A stretch of DNA of 64,000 nt, from sequence record OZ035782.1; one strand, 5' to 3'. Origin of the DNA: Felixounavirus LF110P2. Below are positions 16,299 through 32,651 of this stretch, piece after piece; the first letter of the stretch is position 1; each line of letters opens with the position of its first letter. The notes under the pieces are model-generated. The model worked only from the letters and a program-made list of their open reading frames with translations, was not told where the DNA came from and searched no databases. The position numbers were made by a program, and so were the translations under genes.

Positions 16299-16307
16299 TC
16301 TCTAAAG

Positions 16308-16336
16308 TTACTTTAAAGCCCTGTACTCCGTATGGG
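16308..16336 (+). terminator. rho-independent terminator
   Basis: AAGCCC..GGGGCTT hairpin plus TTTTC. Confidence 0.5.
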
Positions 16337-16359
16337 GCTTTTTCATATGGAGAGCCATA

Positions 16360-17406
16360 ATGGAGAAGTACACATTAACAAAACTTCCCGATTCAGTTAC
16401 ACATGTCTTTATTGACTCTGACAGTATTGCCTATAAAGGTGCTTGTGTAGTTGAGAAAGCAAAATATAAATACGTCAATAAACTCACAGCAGAAGAATCT
16501 GAACCATTTGACAATGCGAAAGATGCTGCAAGATGGTTAGCAGACCAGAGAATCCTTGTGGAAGAACTTGGCCTGACATTTGATGAAGATGAATGGGAAA
16601 GACAGACTTGGAAAGAAGCTAAGAGTGAAAAAGAAGCTATCATGGCTACTCAACAGGTGCTTCAGGAATGGCTTAAGGTTGTTGGTAAAGAAAGAACTTG
16701 GGTAGGTTATTTAACAGAGAAAGGTGTGCATAAACATAAAGACATTAAAGGTCTTGAGCACCAATATCAAGGTAACCGTAAAGATGCTGTCACACCAACA
16801 CACTTAGTTGCTTGTCGTGAATACCTTTTATCCAGACCAGAGTTCAAGCTCTTAAAGGGGGGCTTCGAAGCCGATTCAATCGTAATTGCTAAAGCTGAAA
16901 AGATGGGTAAGAAGGCTGCTCTTATGAGTATTGATAAAGACCTTCGACAAGCTGAAGGAACTTATTGTATTGATATGACTTATGAAAAATCACCACTAAT
17001 CTTTATTGCTGATAATAATGTTGGTGATATCTGGGATTGTCCTATCAAATCAAAACCAAAAGCTGCAAAAACAGTTGGTGTAGGTTTTAAGTTCTTGTGC
17101 TATCAGGCTGTTGCTGGAGATAATGCAGACAACTACTTCGGACTTAAAGGTGCTGGTAAAGTAGCTGTGATGAATGCTTTAGATGGTAAAGAGACCTACA
17201 AAGAGTGTCTTGATGCTATCTATGAACTCTATGCTAAAAAAGACTCTTATACCTATGTGTCATGGGATGGACAGACTGTTACAAAGACACCGTTAGAGTT
17301 AATGGAACAGCATTTCTTCCTAGCTTATCAAGAGCGAAATAAATCAGATATTTTTTCATTTGAAAAGTATGGTTGGACTCCAAATGTTGACTCAGCAGAT
17401 ACTTAA
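16360..17406 (+). CDS. 5'-3' exonuclease / flap endonuclease (RNase H-like)
   Basis: FIDSDSIAYKGA N-terminal PIN-like motif and GFEADSIVIA...SIDKDLRQ matching the FEN family (EADD...DKDL). Confidence 0.7.
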   Translation: MEKYTLTKLPDSVTHVFIDSDSIAYKGACVVEKAKYKYVNKLTAEESEPFDNAKDAARWLADQRILVEELGLTFDEDEWERQTWKEAKSEKEAIMATQQVLQEWLKVVGKERTWVGYLTEKGVHKHKDIKGLEHQYQGNRKDAVTPTHLVACREYLLSRPEFKLLKGGFEADSIVIAKAEKMGKKAALMSIDKDLRQAEGTYCIDMTYEKSPLIFIADNNVGDIWDCPIKSKPKAAKTVGVGFKFLCYQAVAGDNADNYFGLKGAGKVAVMNALDGKETYKECLDAIYELYAKKDSYTYVSWDGQTVTKTPLELMEQHFFLAYQERNKSDIFSFEKYGWTPNVDSADT

Positions 17407-17884
17407 AGAATATCTACACTATGACCCCGAAACAGGGGTCTTTACGTGGATAAAGAAATCAGCTAACAGAACAGTTATAGGTTCCATTGCAGGTACACCA
17501 CATAAGCGAGGTTATATTAGGATAAAAATTAAAAGAAAACCCTATATGGCTCATGATTTAGCAATCCTGTACACAGACGGTTTCCTACCTAACAGAGTAG
17601 ACCATCGAAACGGTATTACTAATGATAATCGGAGATTAAATCTAAGGGTTTGCACACAAGCTGAAAACTCTTGGAATAGAAGAACACACTCCAACAACAC
17701 ATCTGGAGTTAAGGGTGTATCTTTCTATAAGGCTAACCAAAAATGGAAGGCCAGAGTTATGACACACGGAGTATCTCACTTTCTGGGGTATTTTGACAGT
17801 ATTGAAGATGCCAAAGATGCAGTCACAAAGAAAAGAGAAGAACTACATAAAGATTTTTCAAATCACGGAGAAGCTTATGAATGA
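17360..17884 (+). CDS. HNH homing endonuclease with AP2-like DNA-binding domain
   Basis: HNH core (DHRNGITNDNRRLNLRVCTQAEN) and AP2-type GVKGVSFYKANQKWKARV...HFLGYFDSIEDA; true start probably Met near 17384. Confidence 0.7.
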   Translation: MKSMVGLQMLTQQILKEYLHYDPETGVFTWIKKSANRTVIGSIAGTPHKRGYIRIKIKRKPYMAHDLAILYTDGFLPNRVDHRNGITNDNRRLNLRVCTQAENSWNRRTHSNNTSGVKGVSFYKANQKWKARVMTHGVSHFLGYFDSIEDAKDAVTKKREELHKDFSNHGEAYE

Positions 17885-18378
17885 AGATTAAAGGATTTGG
17901 CAATTGCCCCACCTACGGTCATTGGGTATCTTTATGTGGGGAAGTTGACCCCACTAAACATTTTGGCTTTGTCTATTTAGTACACTGTAAGAAGACTGGA
18001 CAATATTATATAGGAAAGAAACAGCTTAACAGTGTGACCAAAAGAAAAGTTGCTGGGAAGACTCGGAAGAAGGTAGTCACTAAGGAAAGTGATTGGATGA
18101 CTTACGAAACCTCTTCTGAGTATATTAAAAAAGATATTGAGAGCTTTGGAAAAGAATTTTTTGACTTTTACATTATTCAGACCTACTACACAAAAGGTGG
18201 CCTAGTCTATGGTGAAGCAAACCTTCAACATAAATTCGATGTAATGACAAAAAGGATTGACTCTAAGCTCAGACTCTTCTACAATGCCAATATTGCAGCA
18301 ATTAAGTTTATCACTAAAGAAACTTATGAAGATGCTGAAAAAAGAATCCATAAGGTAATGAAAGCAAATTGTGCTTGA
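17881..18378 (+). CDS. GIY-YIG domain protein (putative homing endonuclease)
   Basis: FGFVYLVHCKKTGQYYIGKK matches the GIY...YIG signature. Confidence 0.5.
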   Translation: MKIKGFGNCPTYGHWVSLCGEVDPTKHFGFVYLVHCKKTGQYYIGKKQLNSVTKRKVAGKTRKKVVTKESDWMTYETSSEYIKKDIESFGKEFFDFYIIQTYYTKGGLVYGEANLQHKFDVMTKRIDSKLRLFYNANIAAIKFITKETYEDAEKRIHKVMKANCA

Positions 18379-18384
18379 TAACTA

Positions 18385-18648
18385 TTGAGAGAGAATAAAA
18401 TGTTTAACAAAAGCAAAGCTGTGAGTCATGTAGCAAAAGTTGACAGCAAGATTGAAGAACTTGAGCGCATCCTTGCAAATGCCAGAGAGTCAATAATCAA
18501 AGAAGTTGAAGCTGTTGAATCTCAAATGCAGCACCTAATGCTTAAACGTCAAGAGCTACGTGAGCATCTAGAATATATTGAAACACGAGAGCTAAAAGTT
18601 AACAGATATTTTAAGGAGTCCGAATGTTTAACTCAAGAGAATCAGTAA
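18385..18648 (+). CDS. hypothetical coiled-coil protein
   Basis: 87-aa ORF. Confidence 0.4.
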   Translation: MRENKMFNKSKAVSHVAKVDSKIEELERILANARESIIKEVEAVESQMQHLMLKRQELREHLEYIETRELKVNRYFKESECLTQENQ

Positions 18649-19379
18649 AAAACTGGAACCTTCGTTGTGGAAACACTCAAAAGCAACCTTACAGTGATGA
18701 GTATTGGGAATCTTTAAAATCTCAATCTCTGTGTATGCTTGAAGAAGCAAAAGAGCTTGTAAAAGCAATTGAAGAGAAAGACCCCATTGAGACACTGGAT
18801 GCTCAGGCAGATTTGCAATATGTTCTTGACGGTTTGATTTACCTGTCACAACATGACCATAACGGTGCTATGAAAGCTGTTTGCCGTAATAATGACCTGA
18901 AGTACACAGATGACTATGAAGAAGCTTTAAAACGTCTTGCAGACATTGAAAAGCGTACTGGTCAAGAGTGTATTATCAGAATGTCAGTAGTTGATGGTAA
19001 AGAGTGGTATGCGATTGTTCGTACAGCCGATGGGAAGATTATGAAGCAATCAAATCTCCCTAAAGTACAGCTTGGTGAATACATTGTAGAGCTTGAAAGC
19101 CAAGAACTTTTTGTGGTAGTATCTGAGACATGCGTTATCTGCAAAGGTATTGTAGGTAGCTTAAAGGATTTGGGTGTAGATGGTTTTGTAGAAGTTAATC
19201 CAATTACCTCTAAAGCAGATAAAGACTTCTGTAAAGAGAACGGACTATGGATTGCAGATATTGTCTACTATGATGGTGAGCAGTTCCATGTAACCTCATA
19301 CCCGAAACTGAATTATGATGCTAATAACCTGAAGTGCTGGTTAAAAGGGGTTGGTTATAATGGATTCACAGAACATTAA
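18624..19379 (+). CDS. hypothetical protein, possibly MazG-like NTP pyrophosphohydrolase
   Basis: EEAKELVKAIEE...DAQADLQYVLDGL resembles the MazG EExxE...D motif; weak. Confidence 0.35.
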   Translation: MFNSRESVKNWNLRCGNTQKQPYSDEYWESLKSQSLCMLEEAKELVKAIEEKDPIETLDAQADLQYVLDGLIYLSQHDHNGAMKAVCRNNDLKYTDDYEEALKRLADIEKRTGQECIIRMSVVDGKEWYAIVRTADGKIMKQSNLPKVQLGEYIVELESQELFVVVSETCVICKGIVGSLKDLGVDGFVEVNPITSKADKDFCKENGLWIADIVYYDGEQFHVTSYPKLNYDANNLKCWLKGVGYNGFTEH

Positions 19380-19683
19380 TAAAGAGGGTGTGGCTCAAAA
19401 GAGCCACTTCTCAAACTACAATATTTCTATGACGGTGTTTATGAATGACCCGTTACTAGAAAAATATGGTGAGACTCCAGATACACTTCTGGACAATGAA
19501 CAAGTTTTAAAAGCAGTCCTATACAAATACGGGATTGATATTGAGAAAGAATATTCCTTTGAAATCTGCCAACACAGGAATACTTTCGGTAAAGTTGTGA
19601 TGGCTCCACTCTTTATGGGTGTAGAAAGGACTGACTATGGTTGGTTGTATCTAAAAAGAAACTTGGAGAAATACCGTGTCTAA
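19351..19683 (+). CDS. hypothetical protein
   Basis: 110-aa ORF. Confidence 0.4.
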   Translation: MVIMDSQNINKEGVAQKSHFSNYNISMTVFMNDPLLEKYGETPDTLLDNEQVLKAVLYKYGIDIEKEYSFEICQHRNTFGKVVMAPLFMGVERTDYGWLYLKRNLEKYRV

Positions 19684-20014
19684 AGCAAAAAAGCTATCTT
19701 ATGATGATATTGTCTCAGGTGCTAAGTTAGGCGTTGACAGCCTCGGACAAGATGTTAAGCACGGGGACATAGTTATGTACTGTGATGACCGAAGAGGTAG
19801 AAGTGCAATCTTGTTTGGAAGAATTGTTTGCAAGATGCGAGGCAATTACGTTGTTGCAGACATGGATGTGAACGTTACACAAAAACTTGAAACACTTATG
19901 GATGATAATACATCATCATGGTTCTCCCTGAATTGTATGCACACTTCTTCAGTCACAAAAGTAAGTGATAAGTTTTACGATATGTGGCAGAATGAGCAAA
20001 TTTTCAAGATTTAA
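19676..20014 (+). CDS. hypothetical protein
   Basis: 112-aa ORF. Confidence 0.4.
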   Translation: MSKAKKLSYDDIVSGAKLGVDSLGQDVKHGDIVMYCDDRRGRSAILFGRIVCKMRGNYVVADMDVNVTQKLETLMDDNTSSWFSLNCMHTSSVTKVSDKFYDMWQNEQIFKI

Positions 20015-20021
20015 ACTAGGG

Positions 20022-20043
20022 AGCCTCTTCGGAGGCTCTTTTC
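20022..20043 (+). terminator. rho-independent terminator
   Basis: GAGCCTC-TTCG-GAGGCTC hairpin plus TTTTC. Confidence 0.55.
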
Positions 20044-20060
20044 ATCTGTAGGATTCGAAA

Positions 20061-22295
20061 ATGATTAAGACAATTAAAAAATCAAATGGTACAGTAGTAA
20101 GCTTTGACCCAGAAAGACTGAATAAGTGGGCATCATGGGCAGATAAACGTGGAATTATCTGGTCAGAAGTCACTATGGAAGCTATGAAACGTGTCTATGA
20201 GGGTTGCACTACAAAAGAGATGCACCAAGCCATGATTGATGTTTGTGTTGATAAACAAACTCAAGAGTACTCAGATATGGCTGGACGACTGCTTTTGGGT
20301 ATTATCTACAAAGAAGCCTTTGGAGGCTTTACTAAGGTTCCTACGCTGATTACCTTCGTTAAAAATATGGAGAGAGCAGGACTTTGGGAGAAGATGGATT
20401 ACTCACAGGAAGAGCTTGAATACCTGCAAGGTTACATCGTGCACTCAAAAGATATCTCTTACGGTTATGCAGTCTTGAAACAGTTCAGAGACAAGTATGG
20501 TATCCGTGATATTAAAACGGGAAGACTTTTTGAGTCACCACAATTTATGTTTATGGGTATGGCTATGAAAGCCTTTGAGAAGCAACCAAAGCACCGTAGA
20601 CTGCAAGATGTTATCAAGCTGTACACTTACCTATCTGACCTGAAGATTAACGCTCCTACGCCTTATTTAAACGGTTTGAGGGCAACTAAATCAGGTTATG
20701 CGTCATGCTGCTTGATTAAGGCAAACGATACTGCTGAATCACTTGGTATTGCTGCAAAGGTTGCTTATGATATGACTACAAAGCAAGCTGGTATCGGTAT
20801 GCTGATGGAGACTCGCACTATTGGTGATGGTATCCGTCAAAACACTATCGAACACATGGGTAAACTGCCTTATTACAAGCTTGTACGTTCATCTGTAGAG
20901 GCAAACAAACAGAAGAGTCGTGGTGGTTCAGCTAATAACTTCTACACTGCTCTAGACCCGCAGATTGAAGATTTACTGCGTTTGAAGCACCCTACAACGG
21001 TTCCTTCTAAACGTATTAATGAGATGGACTACTCATTCGGCACAAACGATTATTTCTGGCAGTGTGTCCAGTATGATACAGATTGGTTGCTATTCTCTTA
21101 CAAAGATGCACCAAAACTCTATGACATGTTCTACACAGCATCTGCTGATGAGTTTGCTATGGCAGTTGGTCACGCAGTACATTCAGGAGTTAAGCACAGA
21201 CGAGTCAAGGCTCGTGAAATTGCTAAGCTGTTTATTCAACAGCGTTATGCTACAGGTCGTGTGTATCCATTCTTCACTAACAACGCAAACACACATACAC
21301 CATTTAAAGAACCATTGAAGATGTCAAATCTTTGTATGGAAATTGTGTTGCCAGTGTATGGTTTTGAGAAAGAGACAGACCTTTACAGAGACGATGCTGT
21401 GAAAGAGGATGGTGAGGTGGCTCTTTGCTTCCTAGCTAGTTTGGTTGCAGGGAGAATTTCAGAAGATGAATACGCTGACGTTGCTTATTATGCTCTTGCA
21501 ATGGTTGACTCCGTTATTGACCTTATGGATTATCCGTATCCGTCGATGCGTAACCATGTTCAGAAGCGTCGTTCTGTTGGGATTGGCCTTACAAATGTGG
21601 CTCATTACCTTGCGAAGAACTACGTGAACTACTCTTCACGAGCAGGTAAAACGAAACTTCATGAACTTGCAGAGATGCACTCTTACTATCTGCATGAAGC
21701 CTCGCTGAGACTTGCTAAAGAGCGTGGCGTTCCAGAGTACATGAAGTTCACTAAGTATCCTGAAGGCTGGGTTCCTCCAAAGACAGCTAACAAGAAGATT
21801 GATGAAAAGCATGATGCAAAACTACGATATGATTGGGATGACTTAGCACAACGTATCAAAGAAAATGGTGGAATCCGAAACTCTGTATTAGAAGCTTACA
21901 TGCCTAATGAGAGTTCTTCACTAGCAACTAATACGACAAATGGTTTGTACCCAATTCGTGACTTTATTTTAACTAAAAAGTCTGCAACTGGTAACGTACT
22001 GTTTATTGTTCCAGATTATGAAGAATTGAAGTATGTCTATGAAATTGCTTGGGATATCGACACCTTTGATATGATTGACTGTTATGCAATTGTTCAAAAG
22101 TTCACTGGTCAAGCTATCTCTTCAGACTTCTATGTTGACTATGCAAAGTCTAAGAAGGTATCATTGGCTCAAGCTTTGAAGTACATGATTTATGCCAACT
22201 CGGTAGGTATGAAAACCATGTACTACCTTAACAGTCGCATTGGTGTAGGTAAATCTGCACTGCAAGATGCTTATTGCGAGGGCTGTGGTGTTTAG
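20061..22295 (+). CDS. nrdA: ribonucleoside-diphosphate reductase alpha subunit (class Ia)
   Basis: 744 aa, N-terminal ATP-cone (IKKSNGTVVSFDPERL), C-terminal CEGC tail; followed by nrdB. Confidence 0.9.
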   Translation: MIKTIKKSNGTVVSFDPERLNKWASWADKRGIIWSEVTMEAMKRVYEGCTTKEMHQAMIDVCVDKQTQEYSDMAGRLLLGIIYKEAFGGFTKVPTLITFVKNMERAGLWEKMDYSQEELEYLQGYIVHSKDISYGYAVLKQFRDKYGIRDIKTGRLFESPQFMFMGMAMKAFEKQPKHRRLQDVIKLYTYLSDLKINAPTPYLNGLRATKSGYASCCLIKANDTAESLGIAAKVAYDMTTKQAGIGMLMETRTIGDGIRQNTIEHMGKLPYYKLVRSSVEANKQKSRGGSANNFYTALDPQIEDLLRLKHPTTVPSKRINEMDYSFGTNDYFWQCVQYDTDWLLFSYKDAPKLYDMFYTASADEFAMAVGHAVHSGVKHRRVKAREIAKLFIQQRYATGRVYPFFTNNANTHTPFKEPLKMSNLCMEIVLPVYGFEKETDLYRDDAVKEDGEVALCFLASLVAGRISEDEYADVAYYALAMVDSVIDLMDYPYPSMRNHVQKRRSVGIGLTNVAHYLAKNYVNYSSRAGKTKLHELAEMHSYYLHEASLRLAKERGVPEYMKFTKYPEGWVPPKTANKKIDEKHDAKLRYDWDDLAQRIKENGGIRNSVLEAYMPNESSSLATNTTNGLYPIRDFILTKKSATGNVLFIVPDYEELKYVYEIAWDIDTFDMIDCYAIVQKFTGQAISSDFYVDYAKSKKVSLAQALKYMIYANSVGMKTMYYLNSRIGVGKSALQDAYCEGCGV

Positions 22296-22350
22296 TTTTA
22301 ACAACTATGAGGGTCGTAAAAGACCCTCTAAAAATAACTTTGGAGAGACC

Positions 22351-22608
22351 ATGAAAGATTTAATAGAAAAACATGAGCGACCTATATACTTGCTCCACAA
22401 GCCTCGGAAAACGATGTACTATGTGAGTAGCACAGATATGATGATAAAACAAAAGGATGACTCATGGGTTGCTGGTATCTCTTACATCTCTACAGCAGAT
22501 GGTAAAACCTACGCAAGACCTTATGAGATGTTCAACAAAGAAAATTGGGAAGTTTTAGACAGAAAACAAGCCTTAGAAATGATAAAGAAAGGAGAAATCA
22601 CGCTATGA
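22351..22608 (+). CDS. hypothetical protein
   Basis: ORF between nrdA and nrdB; start moved to ATG 22351 after GGAGAG. Confidence 0.4.
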   Translation: MKDLIEKHERPIYLLHKPRKTMYYVSSTDMMIKQKDDSWVAGISYISTADGKTYARPYEMFNKENWEVLDRKQALEMIKKGEITL

Positions 22609-23678
22609 TTAACCAGCACCCAATCTTTTTAGGTGGTGAGAGAAAAACTTTTGACTCACTTAATAAACACTACCCAAAAATCTTTGAGCTTTATAAACAA
22701 CAAAAAGCACAAGATTGGTCAGAAGATGAGTTCCCTTTTGAACAATCACGTCTTGATTTTGAGAGTGTTCCAGCATCAATGTCAGGTGTAATGCTTGAGA
22801 TTCTTAAGTGGCAGTGGGAAGCAGATACTCAAGTTGCTAAGAGTTTGGCATTTGCCTTTGCACCATTTATCTCTGATGACATCTATGCAACTGCAATTAT
22901 GAAGCAGTCTGAGATTGAAAACCTACATGCTCTTACTTACTCAGAGATTGTAAGGCAATGTATTAAAAACCCTGAAACAATCTTAGATGAGATTAACCAG
23001 AATGTTGCTGTACAAGACCGATTAAAAACTGTGAATCGTGTTCTTGAAGAATTACTGGATGAAGGTATAAACTATCGCCTGAGTTATGTGCGCGACTCAC
23101 TTCTGGACAAAGACCCTTTACACTTCCATAAAGTGATTCTAAAAGGTCTATTTGCAGTGACTGCACTTGAAGGTATATCTTTTATGGCATCCTTTGCATG
23201 TACCTTTGCACTTGATGCTCAAGATAAATTTCAGGGTATTGCTCAAGCTGTCCAGAAAATTATGCTTGATGAAATCCTTCACACTAAAATTGATATTGAA
23301 GTTTTAAAAGAAACTTTAAGAGATGATGAGTGGCAGAAAGCTTTTCAACAAATTCTTCCAGAGATTAAAGTAATCTTAGATGAAGTAGTTGAAAGTGAAG
23401 AGAAATGGTCGTATTATATCTTCTCCGAAGGACGTGCTGTAGTTGGCTTAAATACAAAGCTTCTTCATGAGTGGGTTTACTATAATGCTGCCCCACTGTA
23501 TGATATGTTTGGCATTCCCAGAGATTTTGTAGCTCCTAAAGAACCACCTTTGAAGTACATGATTAAGAAGATGGAAATTGATAAAGAGCAGAATGCTAAT
23601 CAGGAGCAACAGAACGGTGCGTACCTATTGAATACTGTTGTAGATGATTTGAATAGTGGATTTTTAGAGGTTCCTTAA
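22605..23678 (+). CDS. nrdB: ribonucleoside-diphosphate reductase beta subunit
   Basis: R2-like ferritin motifs (DEILHT); start moved to ATG 22605 after GGAGAA. Confidence 0.8.
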   Translation: MINQHPIFLGGERKTFDSLNKHYPKIFELYKQQKAQDWSEDEFPFEQSRLDFESVPASMSGVMLEILKWQWEADTQVAKSLAFAFAPFISDDIYATAIMKQSEIENLHALTYSEIVRQCIKNPETILDEINQNVAVQDRLKTVNRVLEELLDEGINYRLSYVRDSLLDKDPLHFHKVILKGLFAVTALEGISFMASFACTFALDAQDKFQGIAQAVQKIMLDEILHTKIDIEVLKETLRDDEWQKAFQQILPEIKVILDEVVESEEKWSYYIFSEGRAVVGLNTKLLHEWVYYNAAPLYDMFGIPRDFVAPKEPPLKYMIKKMEIDKEQNANQEQQNGAYLLNTVVDDLNSGFLEVP

Positions 23679-23920
23679 TGACTTATGTAATTTACTCCAA
23701 AACTGGATGCCCTCAGTGCGAGACTGCAAAGAATTTTGCAAAAGCTCGTGGTATTGACCATGTTGTGAGAATGTTAGGGCAGGACTATGAACTATCAGAC
23801 CTGATTGATATTGCACAGATGCCAGTTCGTCAGATGCCATTCATCATGAAAACTGATGGGCAAAACCTAAAACCTGTTGGTACGCTACAGAATTTTATGG
23901 CAGAGGTGAATAATGCTTAA
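23678..23920 (+). CDS. nrdH: glutaredoxin-like protein (NrdH-type)
   Basis: 80 aa with CPQC redox motif, adjacent to nrdB. Confidence 0.7.
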   Translation: MTYVIYSKTGCPQCETAKNFAKARGIDHVVRMLGQDYELSDLIDIAQMPVRQMPFIMKTDGQNLKPVGTLQNFMAEVNNA

Positions 23921-24119
23921 ACGCATTTGGGAAGGTTTTGTTGTTGATGCACCAGCTATTGTGATTGGTATGCTTATTGTTAACCTATTTACTGACTTTG
24001 AACAAGGTTCATTGTTTGGAGCCATGTTACTATGGGTTATCTTCGAAATATTAGAGATACAGTTAGGTATCACTGAAAAACTAAGAGAACTCTTTGCGAA
24101 GTTTTCTAAAAAGATTTAA
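23913..24119 (+). CDS. hypothetical small membrane protein
   Basis: 68 aa, hydrophobic. Confidence 0.4.
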   Translation: MLKRIWEGFVVDAPAIVIGMLIVNLFTDFEQGSLFGAMLLWVIFEILEIQLGITEKLRELFAKFSKKI

Positions 24120-24123
24120 AATG

Positions 24124-24147
24124 AAAGGGTCTCTTCGGAGACCTTTT
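24124..24147 (+). terminator. rho-independent terminator
   Basis: GGTCTC-TTCG-GAGACC hairpin plus TTTTT. Confidence 0.55.
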
Positions 24148-24167
24148 TAGCATGTAAAGGGGCAATA

Positions 24168-26312
24168 ATGAACAAAGTACAGATTATTAAAAAGAATGGC
24201 TCACTTGAAGAACCTGATATCAAAAAAGTTTTAGCAGCAGTCACAAAGTCAGCTAACAGAGTTGGTTATAAAGAGCTTCCACCAGATGTTACTCAAGCTC
24301 TTGAGTCAGCATTTATGAGGATTCTGGTAAAGTCCACTAAGCAGAATAATTTGCTAATTTCGGTAAATGATATTCACAGTATTGTTGAGGGTGCTTTGGC
24401 AGAAGTCAATCACGAGATTTATGAGTCTTACTCAACATATAGAAATTACCGTAAAGAGGTTGCTCAAAATTGGGATGAACTCTACCAGAAGACCAAAGAT
24501 ACACTCTTCTTAGGCGACCGAGAAAACGCTAATTTTGACAGCAGTTTAATTTCTACAAAAGGCTCAATTATTCGTGGTTACCTGACTAAAGAAATCTTTA
24601 AACAGTACCATTTAACACCAGAGGAACTTGAAGCCATTGAAAAAGGATTTATCTATATCCATGATTTAAGAGACCTAATTTTTGGTGGTATCAACTGTTG
24701 CCTGTTTGACATTGGTAAAGTCCTGAAAGGTGGCTTTGAAATGTCTGGCATCGAATATTGTGAACCGAAGTCTGTGCTGTCAGCCTTACAGGTTATTGGT
24801 GATGTAGTTCTTTCAGCAACTGCACAGCAATTTGGTGGCTTTACTTTAGCAGAGATTGATAAGGTACTTGTACCGTATGCTAAGAAGTCTCTACGCTATC
24901 ATGCTGAGAAAGCAGCATCTTATGGTATTCCTAAAGAACATTACCATAATTATGTCATGGAGCAGCTACAGATTGAATTAACTCAAGGTTTTCAGTCACT
25001 TGAAATGAAACTGAACACTGTACCTTGCAGCCGTGGTGATTTCGCATTCACAACTTTAACATTCGGGTTACTTGACTCAGATATGTCTAATGAAGACAAC
25101 CGACTACAATACATGATTGCAAGTACTCTCCTAGATGTTCGTATGAATGGACAAGGTAAGAGCAAGAAGCCTGTTGTATTCCCTAAACTGGTTTATATTC
25201 ATGACCAGAAGAGACACGATGAGAATATCTGTCAAGGTCAACTGTACAGTAAAGCTATTGAGTGTTGCTCTAAAGCGATGTATCCAGATTTCTTAAGCGT
25301 ATCTGGTCATGGTGCTGTAGCAGAAGCTTTTGAGCGTTCTGGCAAGGTAATTTCACCGATGGGTTGCAGAGCTTTCTTATCCCCATATCTTAACGAGAAT
25401 GGAGAAGAGTTCTACGTTGGACGTGCTAACATTGGTGCTGTATCTTTGAACTTGCCAATGATTTACCAGTATTCTAAAGAGAATGGTTTAGATTTCTGGA
25501 AAGAGCTTGATAAGTACCTAGAGATGATTCGCAGCTTCCACAAGAAACGCTACGAAATGATTGCTAATATGCCAGCAAGTTCTAACCCTCTTGCATTCAC
25601 ACAAGGTGGTCTGTACAAAGGGACTAAGAAACCTACTGACAAGGTTGGTTGGGATATCGTGAAGTCCTTCACAGCTTCTTTTGGGGTTACTGCTCTTGAT
25701 GAGCTGTCTGTTCTTGCTGAAGGTAAACGACTTCATGAAGTTGGAAGCTATAGTTTTGCATACGATGTTCTGGCATACATTAACATGAAAACTGAAGAGT
25801 TTAAGAACGAAGATGGCTTCTTGTATGCGGTATATGGCACTCCAGCAGAATCACTTTGTGGAACTCAGTTAAAACAGTTCAGAGATATGTTTGGCGTTAT
25901 TAAAGGTGTCTCTGACAAGGAATATTTTACAAACAGTTTCCATATGAATGTTGCAGCAGATATCTCACCATTTGAGAAGCAGGACTTAGAAGAGCCATTC
26001 TTCCATATCTGTAGAGGCGGCAGAATCCAGTATGTGAGGGTAGCTAACCCAGAAAACTTACCAGCACTTAAAAGTTGTATTACAAGAGGGATGTTGAAGG
26101 GTTTTTATCAAGGACTTAACTTTGACTTAGCAATCTGTGAACATTGTGGTAACAGACCAAAGGCTGATGTTGAAGAATGTGAGGTTTGTCATTCACACGA
26201 TATCTCTGTGATTAACAGGGTGTGCGGGTACTTGTCATTCACAAAAATTAAAGGTCAGTCTCGAATGAATGACGCTAAGATGGCAGAAATTAAGGATAGG
26301 GTTTCTATGTAG
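24168..26312 (+). CDS. nrdD: anaerobic ribonucleoside-triphosphate reductase
   Basis: N-terminal ATP-cone, C-terminal zinc ribbon CEHCG...CEVC and glycyl-radical motif RVCGYLS. Confidence 0.85.
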   Translation: MNKVQIIKKNGSLEEPDIKKVLAAVTKSANRVGYKELPPDVTQALESAFMRILVKSTKQNNLLISVNDIHSIVEGALAEVNHEIYESYSTYRNYRKEVAQNWDELYQKTKDTLFLGDRENANFDSSLISTKGSIIRGYLTKEIFKQYHLTPEELEAIEKGFIYIHDLRDLIFGGINCCLFDIGKVLKGGFEMSGIEYCEPKSVLSALQVIGDVVLSATAQQFGGFTLAEIDKVLVPYAKKSLRYHAEKAASYGIPKEHYHNYVMEQLQIELTQGFQSLEMKLNTVPCSRGDFAFTTLTFGLLDSDMSNEDNRLQYMIASTLLDVRMNGQGKSKKPVVFPKLVYIHDQKRHDENICQGQLYSKAIECCSKAMYPDFLSVSGHGAVAEAFERSGKVISPMGCRAFLSPYLNENGEEFYVGRANIGAVSLNLPMIYQYSKENGLDFWKELDKYLEMIRSFHKKRYEMIANMPASSNPLAFTQGGLYKGTKKPTDKVGWDIVKSFTASFGVTALDELSVLAEGKRLHEVGSYSFAYDVLAYINMKTEEFKNEDGFLYAVYGTPAESLCGTQLKQFRDMFGVIKGVSDKEYFTNSFHMNVAADISPFEKQDLEEPFFHICRGGRIQYVRVANPENLPALKSCITRGMLKGFYQGLNFDLAICEHCGNRPKADVEECEVCHSHDISVINRVCGYLSFTKIKGQSRMNDAKMAEIKDRVSM

Positions 26313-26319
26313 AATACAA

Positions 26320-26898
26320 ATGAATTACGAACTAATATATAATGCAATTATTAAAAAGGCACATTCTGAAAGGGGTGTGCCTCTCACATACTACAAATGT
26401 CAAGGTAAGGGTTATGAAAGACACCATATCATACCAGTATGTCTAGGTGGCGATAAAATTAGTGGAGATAACATTGCTTTACTTACACCTAGAGAGCATT
26501 ATATAGCTCATAAATTACTGGTTAAGATGTATCCAAACAATCATAAGTTATGGTTTGCATGGAGCAGGTTAGCTCATGATGGCCTAGATAGGAAAATATC
26601 ATCCAGAGACTATGAAAAGGTAAGGGCTTTAAACTCGAAAGCTCTATCGATTGTGAATAAAGGTAGGGTTTTCACTGAAGAGCATCGAAGACGATTAGGA
26701 GAAGCTCAAATAGGTAATACAAAGTCAAAAGGTTGTAAAAGGTCTATGGAAACAAGGAAGAAGATGTCAGAAGCCGGAAAAAAGCCAAAGAAAAAGAAAA
26801 CTTGCCCGCATTGTGGCATGACTGGTGGTGCTGGTAACATGACTCGATATCATTTTGACAATTGTAAGAAAAAAAAAATAACCTTATGTAAAACTTGA
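26320..26898 (+). CDS. HNH homing endonuclease
   Basis: HNH core ERHHIIPVCLGGDKISGDNIALLTPREHYIAH; inserted between nrdD and nrdG; start moved to ATG 26320. Confidence 0.75.
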   Translation: MNYELIYNAIIKKAHSERGVPLTYYKCQGKGYERHHIIPVCLGGDKISGDNIALLTPREHYIAHKLLVKMYPNNHKLWFAWSRLAHDGLDRKISSRDYEKVRALNSKALSIVNKGRVFTEEHRRRLGEAQIGNTKSKGCKRSMETRKKMSEAGKKPKKKKTCPHCGMTGGAGNMTRYHFDNCKKKKITLCKT

Positions 26899-26902
26899 CA
26901 AG

Positions 26903-27289
26903 GTGGTGTGGGTCTTGATAGGCTTACATCACCTTTTTATTTGGAGTTACATTATGGACTTGTGGCTTTATGTAGCAGTTTGTGGGATTGTATGTCTGAT
27001 AATCTTATTTATTCTTGGAATAATGCGATTTAGAGACATCATACAGTCAGATTTTTTGCCTGAGTTTGCCATGATGGTTGGAGTTATTGCACTTTGTGTC
27101 TTGGCGGTGTTCTATTCATACAAAACTGTGATATGGATGAAGTCAAACAATTGTGTAAAAACTCATCAACATCGTGAGGTTACTTATTTTGTGAGTGTAC
27201 TTAGTGGGAACACCACTGTACTTGTCCCACAAACTTCTGTAGAGTATCTTTACACATGTGATAATGGTAAAACTATATGGTGGAATTAA
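26903..27289 (+). CDS. hypothetical membrane protein
   Basis: 128 aa, hydrophobic helices. Confidence 0.4.
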   Translation: MVWVLIGLHHLFIWSYIMDLWLYVAVCGIVCLIILFILGIMRFRDIIQSDFLPEFAMMVGVIALCVLAVFYSYKTVIWMKSNNCVKTHQHREVTYFVSVLSGNTTVLVPQTSVEYLYTCDNGKTIWWN

Positions 27290-27492
27290 CAATGGCAACA
27301 CTCTTAAAGGTATTGACACCCACACTACACATAGTAATCTTCTTCTTTGGGGTTAGTGTTATGGTATGGGGTTTTTCAGACCCACAATGGAGTTTATCAT
27401 ATCATGGACAAATGGATTTATGGTCATGCTTCAAACCATTTTTAGGGTTAGCTATAGCATTCAGTGCATTACCAACTAGGGTGAAATTATGA
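27277..27492 (+). CDS. hypothetical small membrane protein
   Basis: 71 aa, hydrophobic. Confidence 0.35.
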   Translation: MVELTMATLLKVLTPTLHIVIFFFGVSVMVWGFSDPQWSLSYHGQMDLWSCFKPFLGLAIAFSALPTRVKL

Positions 27493-27884
27493 TTAAGTTG
27501 AGCAAAAAACAGTTAGAGTGGATTAAAGATTACGCCTCAGAGTGTGGCTCTTGCGAAAAGAATCACGTAAGATATTCAACATTCCATACAACCTTCGCAT
27601 TGTACATAGGTGACAACGTTCTAAGTGATTCCGTAGAAGATGGTGTAGCGTTGCCTAATGAATTGCTTGACAAATTAGCTGTAGTCACTGGAACTTGGTC
27701 TGAAGAAGACGGTCATGAATTATCTGATGATGTTGTCTTCTACAGTATTGAAAATATTATGAATCCAGAGTACATTATGCTAATGACTTGTGCACAAGAC
27801 TGTGTACCATTACAAAACTTCATCAAAGAGCACTGTGAAGAGTTTATTACTAAACAGGTTCCTTGTCAGGTAGTGTTTGAATAA
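27489..27884 (+). CDS. hypothetical protein
   Basis: 131-aa ORF. Confidence 0.4.
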   Translation: MIKLSKKQLEWIKDYASECGSCEKNHVRYSTFHTTFALYIGDNVLSDSVEDGVALPNELLDKLAVVTGTWSEEDGHELSDDVVFYSIENIMNPEYIMLMTCAQDCVPLQNFIKEHCEEFITKQVPCQVVFE

Positions 27885-27919
27885 GTAAAAGGCTTAAATA
27901 ATATTGGTGAGGTAACTAG

Positions 27920-28405
27920 ATGAATTACATGGAGATTAGACCATTTGACACAGCTAATGGTGAAGGGGTTCGTGTAAGTCTCTTCGTAGCTGGCTGTAAA
28001 CATCACTGTGAAGGTTGCTTTAACAGGGAGTCTTGGAAGTTTAATGCTGGTAAAGTATTTACTTATGCAAACCTTTATGGCATTCTAAGACTTTTGGAAG
28101 ATGACTCTTTAAGTGGGCTGTCTATCCTCGGTGGAGAACCATTGGATGACCGTAACATTGGAGAAGTCACTAAGATTTGTCAGAAGGTTAAATCAATCTA
28201 TCCAGAGAAATCTATCTGGCTCTGGACAGGTTTTCAGTTACATGAAAAAATTCACCTTGATGTGATGAAATATGTTGACGTGGTGATTGATGGTAAGTAT
28301 GATTCATCTAAACCAACAGTTAAACCATATCGTGGTTCTGATAACCAAAACCTCTGGAGAAAAGAGTATGGGTGGCAAGGTGATTGTCAGTGGAGAGCAG
28401 AGTGA
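27920..28405 (+). CDS. nrdG: anaerobic RNR activating protein (radical SAM)
   Basis: CKHHCEGC = Cx3Cx2C radical-SAM cluster motif near N-terminus. Confidence 0.8.
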   Translation: MNYMEIRPFDTANGEGVRVSLFVAGCKHHCEGCFNRESWKFNAGKVFTYANLYGILRLLEDDSLSGLSILGGEPLDDRNIGEVTKICQKVKSIYPEKSIWLWTGFQLHEKIHLDVMKYVDVVIDGKYDSSKPTVKPYRGSDNQNLWRKEYGWQGDCQWRAE

Positions 28406-28485
28406 TTATTCTGGCAAATGGACTAAGGTATAACTCCAATTGGTATCACTGAAGAAGAACTTCATAAGTTCTGTATTAAACTTTA

Positions 28486-28770
28486 ATGAGAGAGAGACTA
28501 AAAATGGGAATTTTAGGTAATATGAAAGCTGGATTCTTGAAGGCACTGGAAAAAGCAGCAGCAATTGTTTCTATGACTGGAAAGCAGGTCGGTGTAGATG
28601 CTTCAGTGGTTGCACAGGTTCTTGCAAGCCAAATTGAACAGCAGCCTTACATCTACGTAGGCCGTGGTAAAGGTGGTAAGAAACAAGCCCACCGTCCGTC
28701 TGGTGCAGCAGCTATTAAACGAGCAGCTAAGAAAGCTCGTAACCGTAAACGTAATAAGAAGGCTAAATAA
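28486..28770 (+). CDS. hypothetical protein with basic C-terminus
   Basis: 94 aa, C-terminal KRAAKKARNRKRNKKAK. Confidence 0.4.
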   Translation: MRERLKMGILGNMKAGFLKALEKAAAIVSMTGKQVGVDASVVAQVLASQIEQQPYIYVGRGKGGKKQAHRPSGAAAIKRAAKKARNRKRNKKAK

Positions 28771-28772
28771 TC

Positions 28773-29093
28773 ATGAGCAAAGTTTATAACACTCGCAAAT
28801 TACAGATTTTCGTACTGTGCCAGTTTATGGCTAAAGAATACAACTTCTACTATTGTGGTACAGGTTTTATTAGTGATGATGATGGCTCATACCTCCCATT
28901 TAAAGAAGCTGTAAAGCTCTTTAATGAAGAGAAAAGCTCTAAGAAAGATATTGAAAAGGTTAAGCTAACCTACAGCAAGAAAGATAAGAAGATTATCTGC
29001 CTAGATAACTTTGTGAAAGTTACTGGAGAAGCAAAAGAGTTTATGGATGAGAGTGAGATTTCATTCACAAGCATCTTGAAAGTAGCTCAGTAA
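28773..29093 (+). CDS. hypothetical protein
   Basis: 106-aa ORF. Confidence 0.4.
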   Translation: MSKVYNTRKLQIFVLCQFMAKEYNFYYCGTGFISDDDGSYLPFKEAVKLFNEEKSSKKDIEKVKLTYSKKDKKIICLDNFVKVTGEAKEFMDESEISFTSILKVAQ

Positions 29094-29105
29094 ACAGATA
29101 CTATA

Positions 29106-29133
29106 AGGGGACTGTAAAGGTTCCCTTTTTATT
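29106..29133 (+). terminator. putative terminator
   Basis: GGGGAC..GTTCCC hairpin plus TTTTTATTTT. Confidence 0.45.
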
Positions 29134-29144
29134 TTGGAGATGAT

Positions 29145-29660
29145 ATGTATCTGTCAAACCTGAAACGTTCGGTTGCAATGTCAGTTCTAAGACTCAGCTT
29201 TGATGAGCGTCAAGAATTTATAGACTCCCACAAATATGACCCTTCAAATTCTAATCACATGGTTCTTTGGAATCGTGATAACTTCCGTGAAAGAGCACTT
29301 GTCCGTTATTACCCACACTACACAATAGATAACCTGTATGAATGGTGTGTTGTTAAGAACACCATTGCAACACTGAACAATCTTTGCAGGTATACGGGTA
29401 AGCAAACATTTACACTAGGCCACCACAAACCTGTTACAAAGGGTGGTGAGCATCACTGTGCAAACTGGTTTATCCAGACTAAACTTGATAACCAGAAGCA
29501 AGGAGATAACCTTCTAAGCACACCTAAGATGACCTATGAAGAGCAAGAGAAATATATCAAAAACAATATGCCAGATGTGCTTGACAACAACTATACAGAT
29601 TTGGCAATATCTCTCTTGTTGAAGTTCGAGACAGTTTATAGGGCAACTTATAATGGCTAA
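29145..29660 (+). CDS. HNH endonuclease
   Basis: GHHKPVTKGGEHHCANWFIQTKLDNQKQGDN HNH-type signature. Confidence 0.55.
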   Translation: MYLSNLKRSVAMSVLRLSFDERQEFIDSHKYDPSNSNHMVLWNRDNFRERALVRYYPHYTIDNLYEWCVVKNTIATLNNLCRYTGKQTFTLGHHKPVTKGGEHHCANWFIQTKLDNQKQGDNLLSTPKMTYEEQEKYIKNNMPDVLDNNYTDLAISLLLKFETVYRATYNG

Positions 29661-29931
29661 AGAGAAGTGGGAGATTTTACCATTAGTCAGTGAAGGTGGT
29701 AATGGTTGTGAGATGTACATGATACGTGGTCATGTTCCAGAACCAATTGCACTTGAGATGGTAAACAACTTTACAGATGGCTCTTACAAAGACTTAGGAG
29801 AGCCAACTATAAAGCAGCAATGGGTAAAGCCTGTACCAGACAGCACAGGTAACTGTAGTGTACTTTATCACGTTGTAGACCCTGCAAAATGCAAATCTGC
29901 AATGGCAGTAACAAACGTAACTTTTGATTGA
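29653..29931 (+). CDS. hypothetical protein
   Basis: 92-aa ORF. Confidence 0.35.
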   Translation: MAKEKWEILPLVSEGGNGCEMYMIRGHVPEPIALEMVNNFTDGSYKDLGEPTIKQQWVKPVPDSTGNCSVLYHVVDPAKCKSAMAVTNVTFD

Positions 29932-29942
29932 GAGAGAAAACT

Positions 29943-30824
29943 ATGAAAACATCTATCCGTGTTACAGTTCATTCACCAACTAAAGGGACTCATGAAGAAG
30001 AGTTTAACATCGTCCAATTCCCTTCTGGTGAGATTGGTGGACACTTTTCGCCAGAGTTTGTTGATTTTACTGCTTATGCAGCATCATCTATCAACAATGT
30101 GATTATGATTGTAAAAGGTTATGATAAAGATACATTGTTTGCTGTGGCACTTGCTAAAGAGGCGGTGGATAACTTAGTACCTCATAAGTTTGCTATGAAG
30201 ACCATTATCTTTTACTATTTGCCAAATGCACGTTATGACCGTCACATGTTTAAAGGTGATGCAGCAGCTTTGAAAGTGTTTGCACAACAGGTTAATGCAA
30301 TGGGTTTTGATGCAGTCTGTGCAGTTGACCCTCACAGCTATGTACCAGATAACCTGTTTAACTGCTTCCAGAGTATTCCTCAAAAGGAAATTGCAGTCCA
30401 CTATGCAAATGACCCACTGATTGATTACTTAGTAGCCCCAGATGCAGGTGCTGCTAAGAAGATTGCAGAGACTGCTAAAGAGGTGGATAAACCATACATC
30501 ACAATGTCTAAAGTGCGTAACCTTAAGACTGGTGAAATTACTGGTATGCGAATCCTTGATGATGTTGATTTGACAGATAAAACCGTCATGATTCTGGATG
30601 ATATCTGTGATGGTGGTCGAACCTTCATAGAAGCAGCGAAACATCTTCGTGAAGCAGGTGCAAAACGTGTGGAACTTTATGTAACACATGGTATCTTCTC
30701 TAAAGATGTTGAAAACCTTCTTGACAATGGTATCGACCATATTTACACTACAAACTCTTTAGGCGAAGCTAAAGACCGTGGCTTAACACATTACAGTCAA
30801 GTTACTGTAGCAAACCTTGATTGA
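29943..30824 (+). CDS. prs: ribose-phosphate pyrophosphokinase (PRPP synthetase)
   Basis: PRPP-binding motif VMILDDICDGGRT; directly upstream of NAMPT; start moved to Met 29943. Confidence 0.65.
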   Translation: MKTSIRVTVHSPTKGTHEEEFNIVQFPSGEIGGHFSPEFVDFTAYAASSINNVIMIVKGYDKDTLFAVALAKEAVDNLVPHKFAMKTIIFYYLPNARYDRHMFKGDAAALKVFAQQVNAMGFDAVCAVDPHSYVPDNLFNCFQSIPQKEIAVHYANDPLIDYLVAPDAGAAKKIAETAKEVDKPYITMSKVRNLKTGEITGMRILDDVDLTDKTVMILDDICDGGRTFIEAAKHLREAGAKRVELYVTHGIFSKDVENLLDNGIDHIYTTNSLGEAKDRGLTHYSQVTVANLD

Positions 30825-30832
30825 AAGTTTAT

Positions 30833-30854
30833 AGGGGCTTAAAAGCCCCATTTT
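30833..30854 (+). terminator. putative terminator/attenuator hairpin
   Basis: GGGGCTT-AAA-AGCCCC followed by ATTTTG. Confidence 0.4.
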
Positions 30855-30869
30855 GAGAGAGATTAAAAG

Positions 30870-32651
30870 ATGACTAAATCACTTTATGCAGTACCAGCAG
30901 GTTTAAACGCAGATGCTTACAAATCTGGTCATGTTTACCAGTACCCTAGTGCAACAGAGTACTTGATGTTCAACCTGACACCACGTAGTGACAAATGGTT
31001 TAACAGCCCCTTAGCAATTGATGGTGTAGTAGCTTTTGGTATTCAACGTTTCGTTAAAGATTACTTGATAGACCACTGGAACGCCACTTTCTTTGAACGT
31101 GATAAAAAAGAAGCCATTGATGAAATCTTAGAAGTCATGAATGGTGTTCTGGGTAAAGATGCTATCGGTCGAGAGCATTGGGAAGCACTTCACGACTTAG
31201 GTTATCTACCAGTTGAAGTATACGCTGTAGAAGAAGGCACAGTTGTTCCAATGCGTGTCCCGATGATTGTCTTTCAGAACACTGTTTCAGGTTTTCATTG
31301 GGTAGCGGGGTATCTGGAAGATGCTTTCTCTGCTGAAATTTGGAAGGCTTGCACCATTGCAACTATTGCATTGCATTACAAACGCATCTGTAAGAAGTGG
31401 GCTGACCTTACTTGTGACAATGACTTACATTTACCTTATCAGTGCCATGATTTTGCTATGCGTGGTATGTCCGGCTTTACTGATGACGCATTTAACGCTG
31501 TAGGTCACTTAACCAGCTTTAAAGGAACTGATAGCTTCCCTGCTGTGTATACGGCTAAACGAATCTATGGACAGTCCTACCCAATCTCTGATATTGGTAG
31601 CTCTGTACCAGCCACTGAGCACTCTGTAATGTGTGCAAACATTGCTTGGAAAGGTGGCAATGAGTTGATTGAAGAAGAAAGACGCTTTAAAGGTGAGTTA
31701 CAAACCTTCCGTCGTTTCTTAACAGAAACTTACCCAACTGGTATTGCAAGTGTTGTTTCAGATACTTATAACTTCTGGAGAACTGTGTCAGAAATCTTAC
31801 CAGCACTCCGTAAAGAAATTATGGAACGTGATGGTAAACTGGTAATTCGTCCTGACTCTGGAGACCCTGTACATATTGTCACAGGTTATAAAGCAATCCA
31901 CTTAGAGTGTGCTAAAAAGGCTTATTATGAGCACCTAAGCAAGCTGGAAGCTAGTGACACAATGCTGAATGCTGTTCTGAACATGAAGCTTGAAAACATC
32001 AACTATGGTATTGCTGGATGGCTACTGTCAGAAGGCTACGAAATGGTTGTTGACAGAGAAGACTTTGAAGCTGCTGATACGGTGCTGTTGAAGAATGCTT
32101 ATATGGTTGGCTCTGCAAACGTTGTAACACGTCCTGTAGCGGAGATTGATGGAGCTATTAAGACACTGTACAACATCTTTGGGGGAACTATTAACTCTAA
32201 AGGGTTTAAGGTACTGGATGAGCACATCGGCCTTATCTATGGTGACTCTATCACACTGGAACGTGCAAACGAAATCCTGAAGCGTCTGTATGAAATGGGT
32301 TTTGCAAGCTCTAACGTAGTGTTTGGTGTAGGCTCTTACACTTACCAGTACATGACTCGTGACACCTTTGCATTTGCTGTCAAAGCAACTCTTGCAAGCA
32401 TTGGTGGTAAAGAGATTATGCTTGCAAAAGACCCTAAAACAGATAGTGGTGTTAAGAAATCTGCCTTTGGTGGTGTAGCACCTATGTGGGATGGTGATAA
32501 GCTGAAAGCTGTAGATGGCTATGGGTTCCAGAGTTTTGCAGATGTACTTGACCACCCAGCTTGTGCCTTACGTTTAGTCTTTAGTGACTCTGAGCAGTTC
32601 GGTTACACAACTCTTGGTGATATTCGAAATAATATTGACAAGCAGCTTTAA
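30870..32651 (+). CDS. nadV: nicotinamide phosphoribosyltransferase
   Basis: Conserved NAMPT blocks DAYKSGH, HDFAMRG, FKGTDS, VPATEHS, VVSDTYNFW, IRPDSGDP. Confidence 0.85.
   Translation: MTKSLYAVPAGLNADAYKSGHVYQYPSATEYLMFNLTPRSDKWFNSPLAIDGVVAFGIQRFVKDYLIDHWNATFFERDKKEAIDEILEVMNGVLGKDAIGREHWEALHDLGYLPVEVYAVEEGTVVPMRVPMIVFQNTVSGFHWVAGYLEDAFSAEIWKACTIATIALHYKRICKKWADLTCDNDLHLPYQCHDFAMRGMSGFTDDAFNAVGHLTSFKGTDSFPAVYTAKRIYGQSYPISDIGSSVPATEHSVMCANIAWKGGNELIEEERRFKGELQTFRRFLTETYPTGIASVVSDTYNFWRTVSEILPALRKEIMERDGKLVIRPDSGDPVHIVTGYKAIHLECAKKAYYEHLSKLEASDTMLNAVLNMKLENINYGIAGWLLSEGYEMVVDREDFEAADTVLLKNAYMVGSANVVTRPVAEIDGAIKTLYNIFGGTINSKGFKVLDEHIGLIYGDSITLERANEILKRLYEMGFASSNVVFGVGSYTYQYMTRDTFAFAVKATLASIGGKEIMLAKDPKTDSGVKKSAFGGVAPMWDGDKLKAVDGYGFQSFADVLDHPACALRLVFSDSEQFGYTTLGDIRNNIDKQL

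Follow-up and report, generated by a model that had tools for sequence, protein, structure and literature searches.

Two probable homing endonuclease cassettes and two conserved nuclease genes in the nucleotide-metabolism region of Felixounavirus LF110P2

Introduction

Which of the nuclease genes lying among the replication and nucleotide-metabolism genes of a Felix O1-like phage are mobile homing endonuclease genes, and which belong to the stable gene content of the lineage? This question is raised by a stretch of 64,000 nucleotides from Felixounavirus LF110P2 (OZ035782.1), hereafter called the window, in which four nuclease-like open reading frames (ORFs) are located between positions 17360 and 29660. 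An initial annotation interpreted all of them as free-standing homing endonuclease genes and as marks of recent mobile DNA. Felix O1-like phages are described as differing from one another mainly by insertions and deletions (indels) of homing endonuclease genes (PMC3728262, PMC8300805), and six HNH endonuclease genes have been reported for Felix O1 (PMC3185647). On the other hand, domestication of homing endonucleases has been documented in phages, namely for ICP1 Odn and for the HNH protein gp74 of HK97 with terminase, and bioinformatics alone cannot separate homing from domesticated nucleases (PMC10448857).

From the comparisons described below it is quite probable that two of the genes, HNH1 and HNH3, are mobile free-standing homing endonuclease cassettes and that the other two, a GIY-YIG gene and ORF4, are lineage-wide, constrained nuclease genes. 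Presence/absence polymorphism, exact junctions, intact ORFs and linkage to flanking sequence are shown for HNH1 and HNH3, for which we infer DNA cleavage and biased inheritance. The label of recent mobile DNA does not apply to the GIY-YIG gene and ORF4: both occur at the same position in relatives and, judged by dN/dS, the purifying selection on them matches that on the adjacent enzyme genes.

Sequence material and comparisons

The block from 16300 to 30900 contains exo, mazG, nrdA, nrdB, grx, nrdD, nrdG and prs along with small ORFs. Its sequence matches Felixounavirus LF110P2 (OZ035766.1) at 100% identity and ~260 records of Felix O1-like phages at 90-97%, which made a presence/absence test among relatives directly feasible. 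For this purpose, a database-wide blastn search was performed with each gene and records with a coverage of at least 80% were counted. The counts contain GenBank and RefSeq duplicates as well as non-independent lineages, and junction counts by E-value are lower bounds. A panel consisted of 18 relatives belonging to four genera (including Felixounavirus, Mooglevirus and Suspvirus, and the Erwinia phage phiEa104); for ORF4 the panel total is 17 Felixounavirus, Mooglevirus and Suspvirus genomes. Some records with Felixounavirus sequence (MG065664, MG065668 and others) are filed as 'Campylobacter phage A132/A126' or 'Staphylococcus phage' and are probably mislabelled or contaminated.

Distribution of the four genes

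All four ORFs are present at the positions that had been given for them, each with a nuclease signature. A search of the four proteins against NCBIfam yielded no match. The initial annotation had proposed a comparison of gene order with related phages and had stated that an invariant set of these genes, located at identical positions throughout the relatives, would speak against mobility. This comparison divided the set. In 136 records slot 1, the site of HNH1, is empty; a full-length HNH3 is present in 51 of ~260 records. Of 297 records matching the GIY-YIG gene, 268 have it at one position, and ORF4 was detected in 240 of 273 matching records, so that for these two the presence/absence polymorphism typical of mobile homing endonucleases was not seen. 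Hence, the reading as homing endonucleases holds for the polymorphic HNH1 and HNH3, and the term recent mobile DNA has to be dropped for the conserved and constrained other pair.

HNH1 in slot 1

The features at this site are as follows.

16360-17406, plus strand: 5'-3' exonuclease gene (exo), assigned by PHROG 107 'exonuclease' (5e-62) and by the annotations of relatives
17369-17884, plus strand: HNH1, free-standing homing endonuclease gene of the HNH_3 type whose C-terminal region is weakly AP2-like (Pfam, PHROG)
17377-17875, plus strand: HNH1 cassette of ~499 nt in slot 1 between exo and the GIY-YIG gene, from the alignment of occupied and empty junctions
17423-17440, plus strand: hairpin GACCCC-GAAACA-GGGGTC within the 5' coding region of HNH1 (RNA fold, alignment)

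The junction alignment defined the cassette to the nucleotide. In an empty slot, ...AATTGG is followed by the 8 nt GAGCCGTG and then by TATGAATGAAG; the cassette replaces these 8 nt. It provides exo with a new C-terminal tail (the final ~10 codons) and a stop codon, and the ATGA stop/start overlap with the GIY-YIG gene is kept. The distance between exo and the GIY-YIG gene is bimodal: genomes of Felixounavirus, Mooglevirus and Suspvirus have either ~477 nt or -2 nt, and phiEa104 has 7 nt.

Three states of the slot were counted in the database: 136 records had the contiguous, empty junction, 27 a full-length allele of the window type and 43 the Felix O1-type allele. The window thus carries a minority allele. 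In the 18-genome panel, eight genomes possess the window-type allele (84-99% amino-acid identity) and four an allele which is ~55% identical, while six are empty; the junction alignment revealed the VpaE1-type as a third allele. The HNH1 ORF is unbroken in the window and in all 11 occupied panel genomes (11/11). Its dN/dS against Moogle is 0.065, and over the cassettes a value of ~0.07 was obtained for both HNH1 and HNH3.

Not only the slot but also the sequence upstream of it varies. The last ~600 nt of exo (~16750-17350) form a haplotype block with two haplotypes that follow the type of the HNH1 allele: sliding identity in this part is 94-99% in genomes with allele A versus 73-88% in genomes with allele B. 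Empty slots were seen on both haplotype backgrounds.

The listed HNH1 ORF opens at a TTG codon (17360), whereas the annotations of relatives let the gene begin with the ATG at 17369. Its designation as an HNH endonuclease with an AP2 domain was confirmed in the first part. The match to Pfam HNH_3 (E=1.8e-7, 31.2 bits, cut-off 24.8) exceeds the curated threshold, and PHROG 99 'HNH endonuclease' was matched with 1e-70. The AP2 match, by contrast, remained below its cut-off (17.4 versus 33.3 bits, E=0.0057), although one relative is annotated as 'AP2 domain protein'. The position in tandem with the GIY-YIG gene behind the neighboring gene was correct, too; the name 'flap endonuclease' for this neighbor is backed only by PHROG 107 and relatives' annotations, and a Pfam search with exo gave nothing at E<=0.01.

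HNH1 resembles the HNH_3/AP2-type endonucleases of Felix O1, being 35-53% identical to ORF95, ORF106 and ORF128. It fills the same slot as ORF106, yet the identity to that allele is just ~53%. Unlike the multi-copy set of Felix O1, the window has a single member of this family. In Felix O1, Moogle, SUSP1, VpaE1, radambza and ekra, HNH_3-type genes occupy two further slots, one between prs and nadV (window 30825-30869) and one next to the DNA polymerase gene (upstream of 16360); both are empty in the window.

The hairpin near the 5' end of HNH1 is nucleotide-identical across all slot-1 alleles, which elsewhere are ~50% diverged. The surrounding stretch of 56 nt folds at -19.9 kcal/mol (z=-5.4). 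A second copy of the hairpin was sought within the window and not found; in the Felix O1 HNH paralog beside the polymerase gene the stem is kept and the loop differs. The structure may be a regulatory RNA element or a hotspot of conversion between paralogs.

HNH3 in slot 3

The second cassette is located behind nrdD, where the following features were identified.

24168-26312, plus strand: nrdD (Pfam NRDD 1.9e-114)
26312-26890, plus strand: HNH3 cassette of ~579 nt in slot 3, from the alignment of the window and 17 relatives
26320-26898, plus strand: HNH3, Mob-family (MobE-like) free-standing homing endonuclease gene with HNH and NUMOD3 (MobE BLASTP, PHROG, Pfam)
26900-26935, plus strand: terminator-like hairpin of 16 pairs with a T-run downstream of nrdD/HNH3, present in occupied and empty genomes

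The cassette is bordered by a direct repeat, TATGTA, at 26306-26311 and 26885-26890. Its position between the stop codon of nrdD and the nrdD terminator makes co-transcription of HNH3 with nrdD probable. The stop codon of nrdD is TAG in the window, which contains HNH3, and TAA in genomes with an empty site. A position between nrdD and nrdG had been proposed for this gene. It does follow nrdD directly, but nrdG (27920-28405) comes only after three further ORFs (26903-27884), and the description of the nrdD/nrdG interval as the classic intron-less homing site is a loose one as the cassette is not adjacent to nrdG.

The HNH motif, YERHHIIPVCLGG...N...H, can be read directly from the sequence. HNH3 matched Pfam NUMOD3 (2.4e-6) and PHROG 655 'homing endonuclease' (8.6e-58). 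In BLASTP the protein is 35% identical to MobE of T4 (E=5e-22), and T6 mobE showed 34% identity over 96% of the query. MobE has homing activity in T-even phages. Like T4 mobE, HNH3 encodes an MNYxxIYNxxI N-terminus in addition to the HNH core, is free-standing, lies beside a gene of a ribonucleotide reductase (RNR) and is variably present among close relatives. There are two differences: mobE is located between nrdA and nrdB while HNH3 follows nrdD (class III RNR), and MobE has 141 aa while HNH3 comprises 192 aa with a longer C-terminal region including the NUMOD3 motif.

In the panel, HNH3 is present in nine of the 18 genomes. In phiSUSP1, which belongs to another genus, a 74%-identical HNH3 was found at the identical site. 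The 3' end of the gene is variable. It contains a run of ten A residues (26869-26878) whose length ranges from 4 to 15 nt in relatives, resulting in differing C-terminal tails; in the window the reading frame continues to a TGA codon at 26896-26898, which appends the residues ITLCKT. The copy in VpaE1 is frameshifted.

For the last ~110 nt of nrdD (~26196-26305), two haplotypes exist, type 1 and the Felix O1-like type 2, which differ by ~20%. Their linkage to HNH3 was analyzed by a database search with a chimeric query in which the type 2 end of nrdD was joined to HNH3. All 48 full-span matches were just 81-85% identical to this query, demonstrating that every record containing HNH3 is of type 1 (48 versus 0). 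Among the records lacking HNH3, ~117 have a type 2-like nrdD end and 43 are of type 1 with an empty site. This association fits co-conversion or hitch-hiking of flanking markers, though it is no proof of repeated homing.

Other insertions were observed in nrdD itself. In nataliec (L007, 8879-9710) and JH2 (L015, 8878-9697) the gene is split, at about position 25368 of the window, by an insertion of ~830 bp. This insertion encodes another homing endonuclease and shows a signal for a group I intron (Rfam RF00028, 33 bits, E=2e-6), the latter below the gathering score. The nrdD gene of the window lacks this insertion. Just 5' of the insertion site, heid and garuso contain a block of 76-78% identity (window 24850-25300).

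The GIY-YIG gene

17881-18378, plus strand: stand-alone GIY-YIG nuclease gene encoding a catalytic domain only (Pfam SegE_GIY-YIG 9.4e-28)

The 268 records with this gene represent several Ounavirinae lineages, including Erwinia phages. All 18 panel genomes harbor it (18/18), phiEa104 among them, and it is syntenic in Pectobacterium phage Arno18. In the empty arrangement of slot 1, as also in phiEa104 and Arno18, the gene abuts exo, and its start overlaps the exo stop codon in every empty-slot panel genome of Felixounavirus, Mooglevirus and Suspvirus. Amino-acid identity from Felixounavirus to Kolesnikvirus and Arno18 is 51-62%, and the residues Y32, Y43, R62, E112 and N135 of the catalytic site are invariant. 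Measured against other genera, its dN/dS of 0.03-0.05 is similar to that of exo and nrdA.

The protein consists of 165 aa. Residues 21-138 constitute the catalytic domain, which leaves ~27 residues beyond it. Searches for NUMOD, IENR1 and helix-turn-helix (HTH) motifs gave no match and the structure model, a prediction of moderate confidence, shows one C-terminal helix. The best structural match of this model is the catalytic domain of I-TevI. Like T4 SegE and I-TevI, the protein possesses the conserved catalytic Tyr, Tyr, Arg, Glu and Asn. Unlike them, it has neither a linker nor a DNA-binding domain, and its gene is non-polymorphic and under strong purifying selection across genera. A PDB sequence search with the GIY-YIG protein and ORF4 yielded spurious matches only, and hhalign comparisons of the GIY-YIG alignment with single sequences of T4 DenA and I-TevI were not significant for either and cannot tell the two apart.

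Homologs were detected in more than 300 cyanomyovirus records, where they are single-copy, comprise only the domain and are labelled 'NAD synthetase'; in S-SSM5 the gene lies ~2 kb from nrdAB. The same label is attached to PHROG 447 and to ORF107 of Felix O1 and appears to be a propagated misannotation. In relatives the gene is often annotated as 'GIY-YIG homing endonuclease'.

ORF4

29145-29660, plus strand: ORF4 (PHROG 3500), putative divergent HNH-motif (beta-beta-alpha-Me) protein (motif, model, profile search)
29105-29127, plus strand: terminator-like hairpin directly upstream of ORF4 (hairpin scan)

The initial annotation placed this gene before prs. It is indeed situated upstream of prs, but another ORF (29653-29931) intervenes. 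A Pfam search with ORF4 gave no match. Its HNH-like core, GH[HY]xPxxxGGxHHxxNWxIQxxxDNQxQ, is invariant across homologs, and the predicted structure, of moderate confidence, places a beta-beta-alpha fold at residues 89-122. Weak relationships were obtained with PHROG 2214 'HNH endonuclease' (4e-6) and, by profile search, with the HNH_5-bearing P0050 (E=3e-5). A metal-dependent nuclease activity is likely for ORF4. A deep profile search recovered only 18 cluster representatives of the family among 1.84 billion proteins; due to this narrow distribution, ORF4 has no firm tie to any characterized nuclease.

ORF4 is present in all 17 Felixounavirus, Mooglevirus and Suspvirus genomes of the panel (17/17). 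In phiEa104 a truncated remnant without the motif was found. The spacing to the neighboring genes is constant, 54 nt and -5 nt in the panel (in the window, the measured values are 51 and -8 nt). Against other genera the dN/dS is 0.09-0.12, comparable to mazG and prs.

Other variable sites in the block

Behind HNH3, a small ORF block at ~26936-27290 (ORF 26903-27289, PHROG 8826) represents an indel separate from the cassette. All four combinations of presence and absence of HNH3 and PHROG 8826 occur among relatives, indicating recombination between the two. At 28368-28483, an ORF belonging to VOG6541 retains only its first and last 19 codons as a result of an internal deletion of ~160 nt between nrdG and the next gene; it is intact in garuso and most relatives.

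Two of the metabolic genes also vary. In phages that are otherwise ~95% identical, prs (29928-30824) falls into two deep allele classes (~80% versus 95-99% amino-acid identity). Within nrdG (28000-28300), the window is closer to Felix O1 and Moogle than to its nearest relatives. The allele patterns of prs and nrdG point to strong local mosaicism.

The ORF at 28773-29093 was considered as a fifth endonuclease gene and rejected, as it matches Pfam DUF7390 and contains no HNH motif. In several relatives it is annotated as 'putative HNH homing endonuclease', and LF82P2 has a replacement allele of 51% identity. A promoter scan of the window identified 36 sites versus 40.5 expected from shuffled sequence, i.e., no excess.

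Discussion

HNH1 and HNH3 each fill one exact intergenic slot in a manner that would leave the neighboring genes functional. During co-infection, the enzyme would cut the cassette-less allele near the slot, and the cassette-bearing genome would then serve as template for the repair of the break. Repair would copy the cassette together with flanking sequence, ranging from ~100 nt for HNH3 to ~600 nt for HNH1.

The role of the GIY-YIG protein may be a different one. T4 endonuclease II (EndoII, DenA) is a stand-alone GIY-YIG nuclease that starts the breakdown of cytosine-containing DNA, and its gene denA adjoins nrdB. By analogy with T4 denA, and due to the synteny with exo, the GIY-YIG protein could be a DNA-processing nuclease working with the 5'-3' exonuclease, whose gene it overlaps in the empty arrangement, taken as ancestral, a suggestion which we make tentatively and rate somewhat below an even chance. 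The protein might nick or break the DNA and the exonuclease might extend the lesion, resembling the part played by EndoII in T4. Felix O1-type phages are not known to modify their DNA, so that discrimination between self and non-self would need another basis than in the DenA system.

The ancestors of the GIY-YIG gene and ORF4 may have been homing endonucleases, even though neither gene behaves as a mobile element in the sampled population. It is conceivable, if rather doubtful, that both are homing-endonuclease-derived nucleases which were domesticated into core functions of the Ounavirinae, for instance with the GIY-YIG protein as a nickase that consists of the domain alone and is coupled with the 5'-3' exonuclease in DNA breakdown or recombination, and that the cyanomyovirus relatives have a similar conserved role. 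As in the domesticated nucleases ICP1 Odn and HK97 gp74, a nuclease domain of the homing type would be kept as a non-mobile functional gene. Unlike Odn, the GIY-YIG protein lacks an acquired DNA-binding domain, and ORF4, unlike the HNH gene of gp74, is not beside a terminase gene. Alternatively, though this is unlikely, the GIY-YIG protein could be an SLX1/UvrC-type, structure-specific nuclease acting in replication or recombination, e.g., in the processing of branches or junctions with the flap exonuclease, instead of an EndoII-like enzyme of bulk breakdown.

Several observations weigh against the division into two mobile cassettes and two resident nucleases, or against parts of it. The inter-genus dS is near saturation and makes the dN/dS figures rough. 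The Pfam match of the GIY-YIG protein is of the Seg homing type, and to T4 DenA it shows no significant similarity (hhalign probability 0.5%). The type 1 end of nrdD is common without HNH3 (the 43 records mentioned above), so that the linkage could reflect one insertion on a single haplotype with later losses and not repeated co-conversion. Moreover, ORFs of the block that do not encode endonucleases are affected by indels, too (p8826, VOG1499 and the VOG6541 remnant), indicating that general mosaicism exists apart from homing.

It might be argued from these indels, the abundance of type 1 without HNH3, the deep allelic mosaicism in prs, nrdG and p4462, and the frameshift in VpaE1 that the presence or absence of HNH1 and HNH3 results from ordinary mosaic recombination and deletion in a hypervariable region, the genes being passengers or decaying remnants. 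This is quite improbable, however, since the cassette boundaries are exact to the nucleotide and the same across genera, as illustrated by the phiSUSP1 copy, and since at least three diverged HNH alleles share slot 1. The catalytic motifs of both genes are intact and purifying selection is evident. Furthermore, HNH3 is linked to its flanking haplotype without exception (48:0) and is homologous to MobE.

That all four genes are selfish homing endonucleases, of which the GIY-YIG gene and ORF4 swept to fixation until empty targets were gone, is very improbable, for although the two have nuclease motifs as typically found in homing endonucleases, the best Pfam match of the former is of the SegE type with relatives annotated accordingly, and fixation is one stage in the life cycle of such elements, a fixed homing endonuclease without targets is expected to decay, whereas the GIY-YIG gene is conserved with its catalytic residues kept and a low dN/dS, its protein lacks the DNA-binding domain needed by Seg and I-TevI for site recognition, and ORF4 displays invariant spacing and a dN/dS of ~0.1 over three genera.

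The finding of mobile HNH1 and HNH3 genes is ordinary, as homing endonuclease indels in Felix O1-like phages have already been published. The cassettes themselves matter little, such genes having been annotated as homing endonucleases in relatives before. What has been gained for them are the exact sequences of the empty sites and the linked haplotypes, which could serve as ready-made cleavage substrates. As phylogenetic markers, the 3' ends of exo and nrdD cannot be relied on. In addition, two propagated misannotations were corrected, 'NAD synthetase' for the GIY-YIG nuclease and 'HNH homing endonuclease' for the DUF7390 protein. The possible domestication of the GIY-YIG gene and ORF4 is the one lead that is mildly novel. 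If it is true, the two genes would join the few known cases in which phages have domesticated homing endonucleases.

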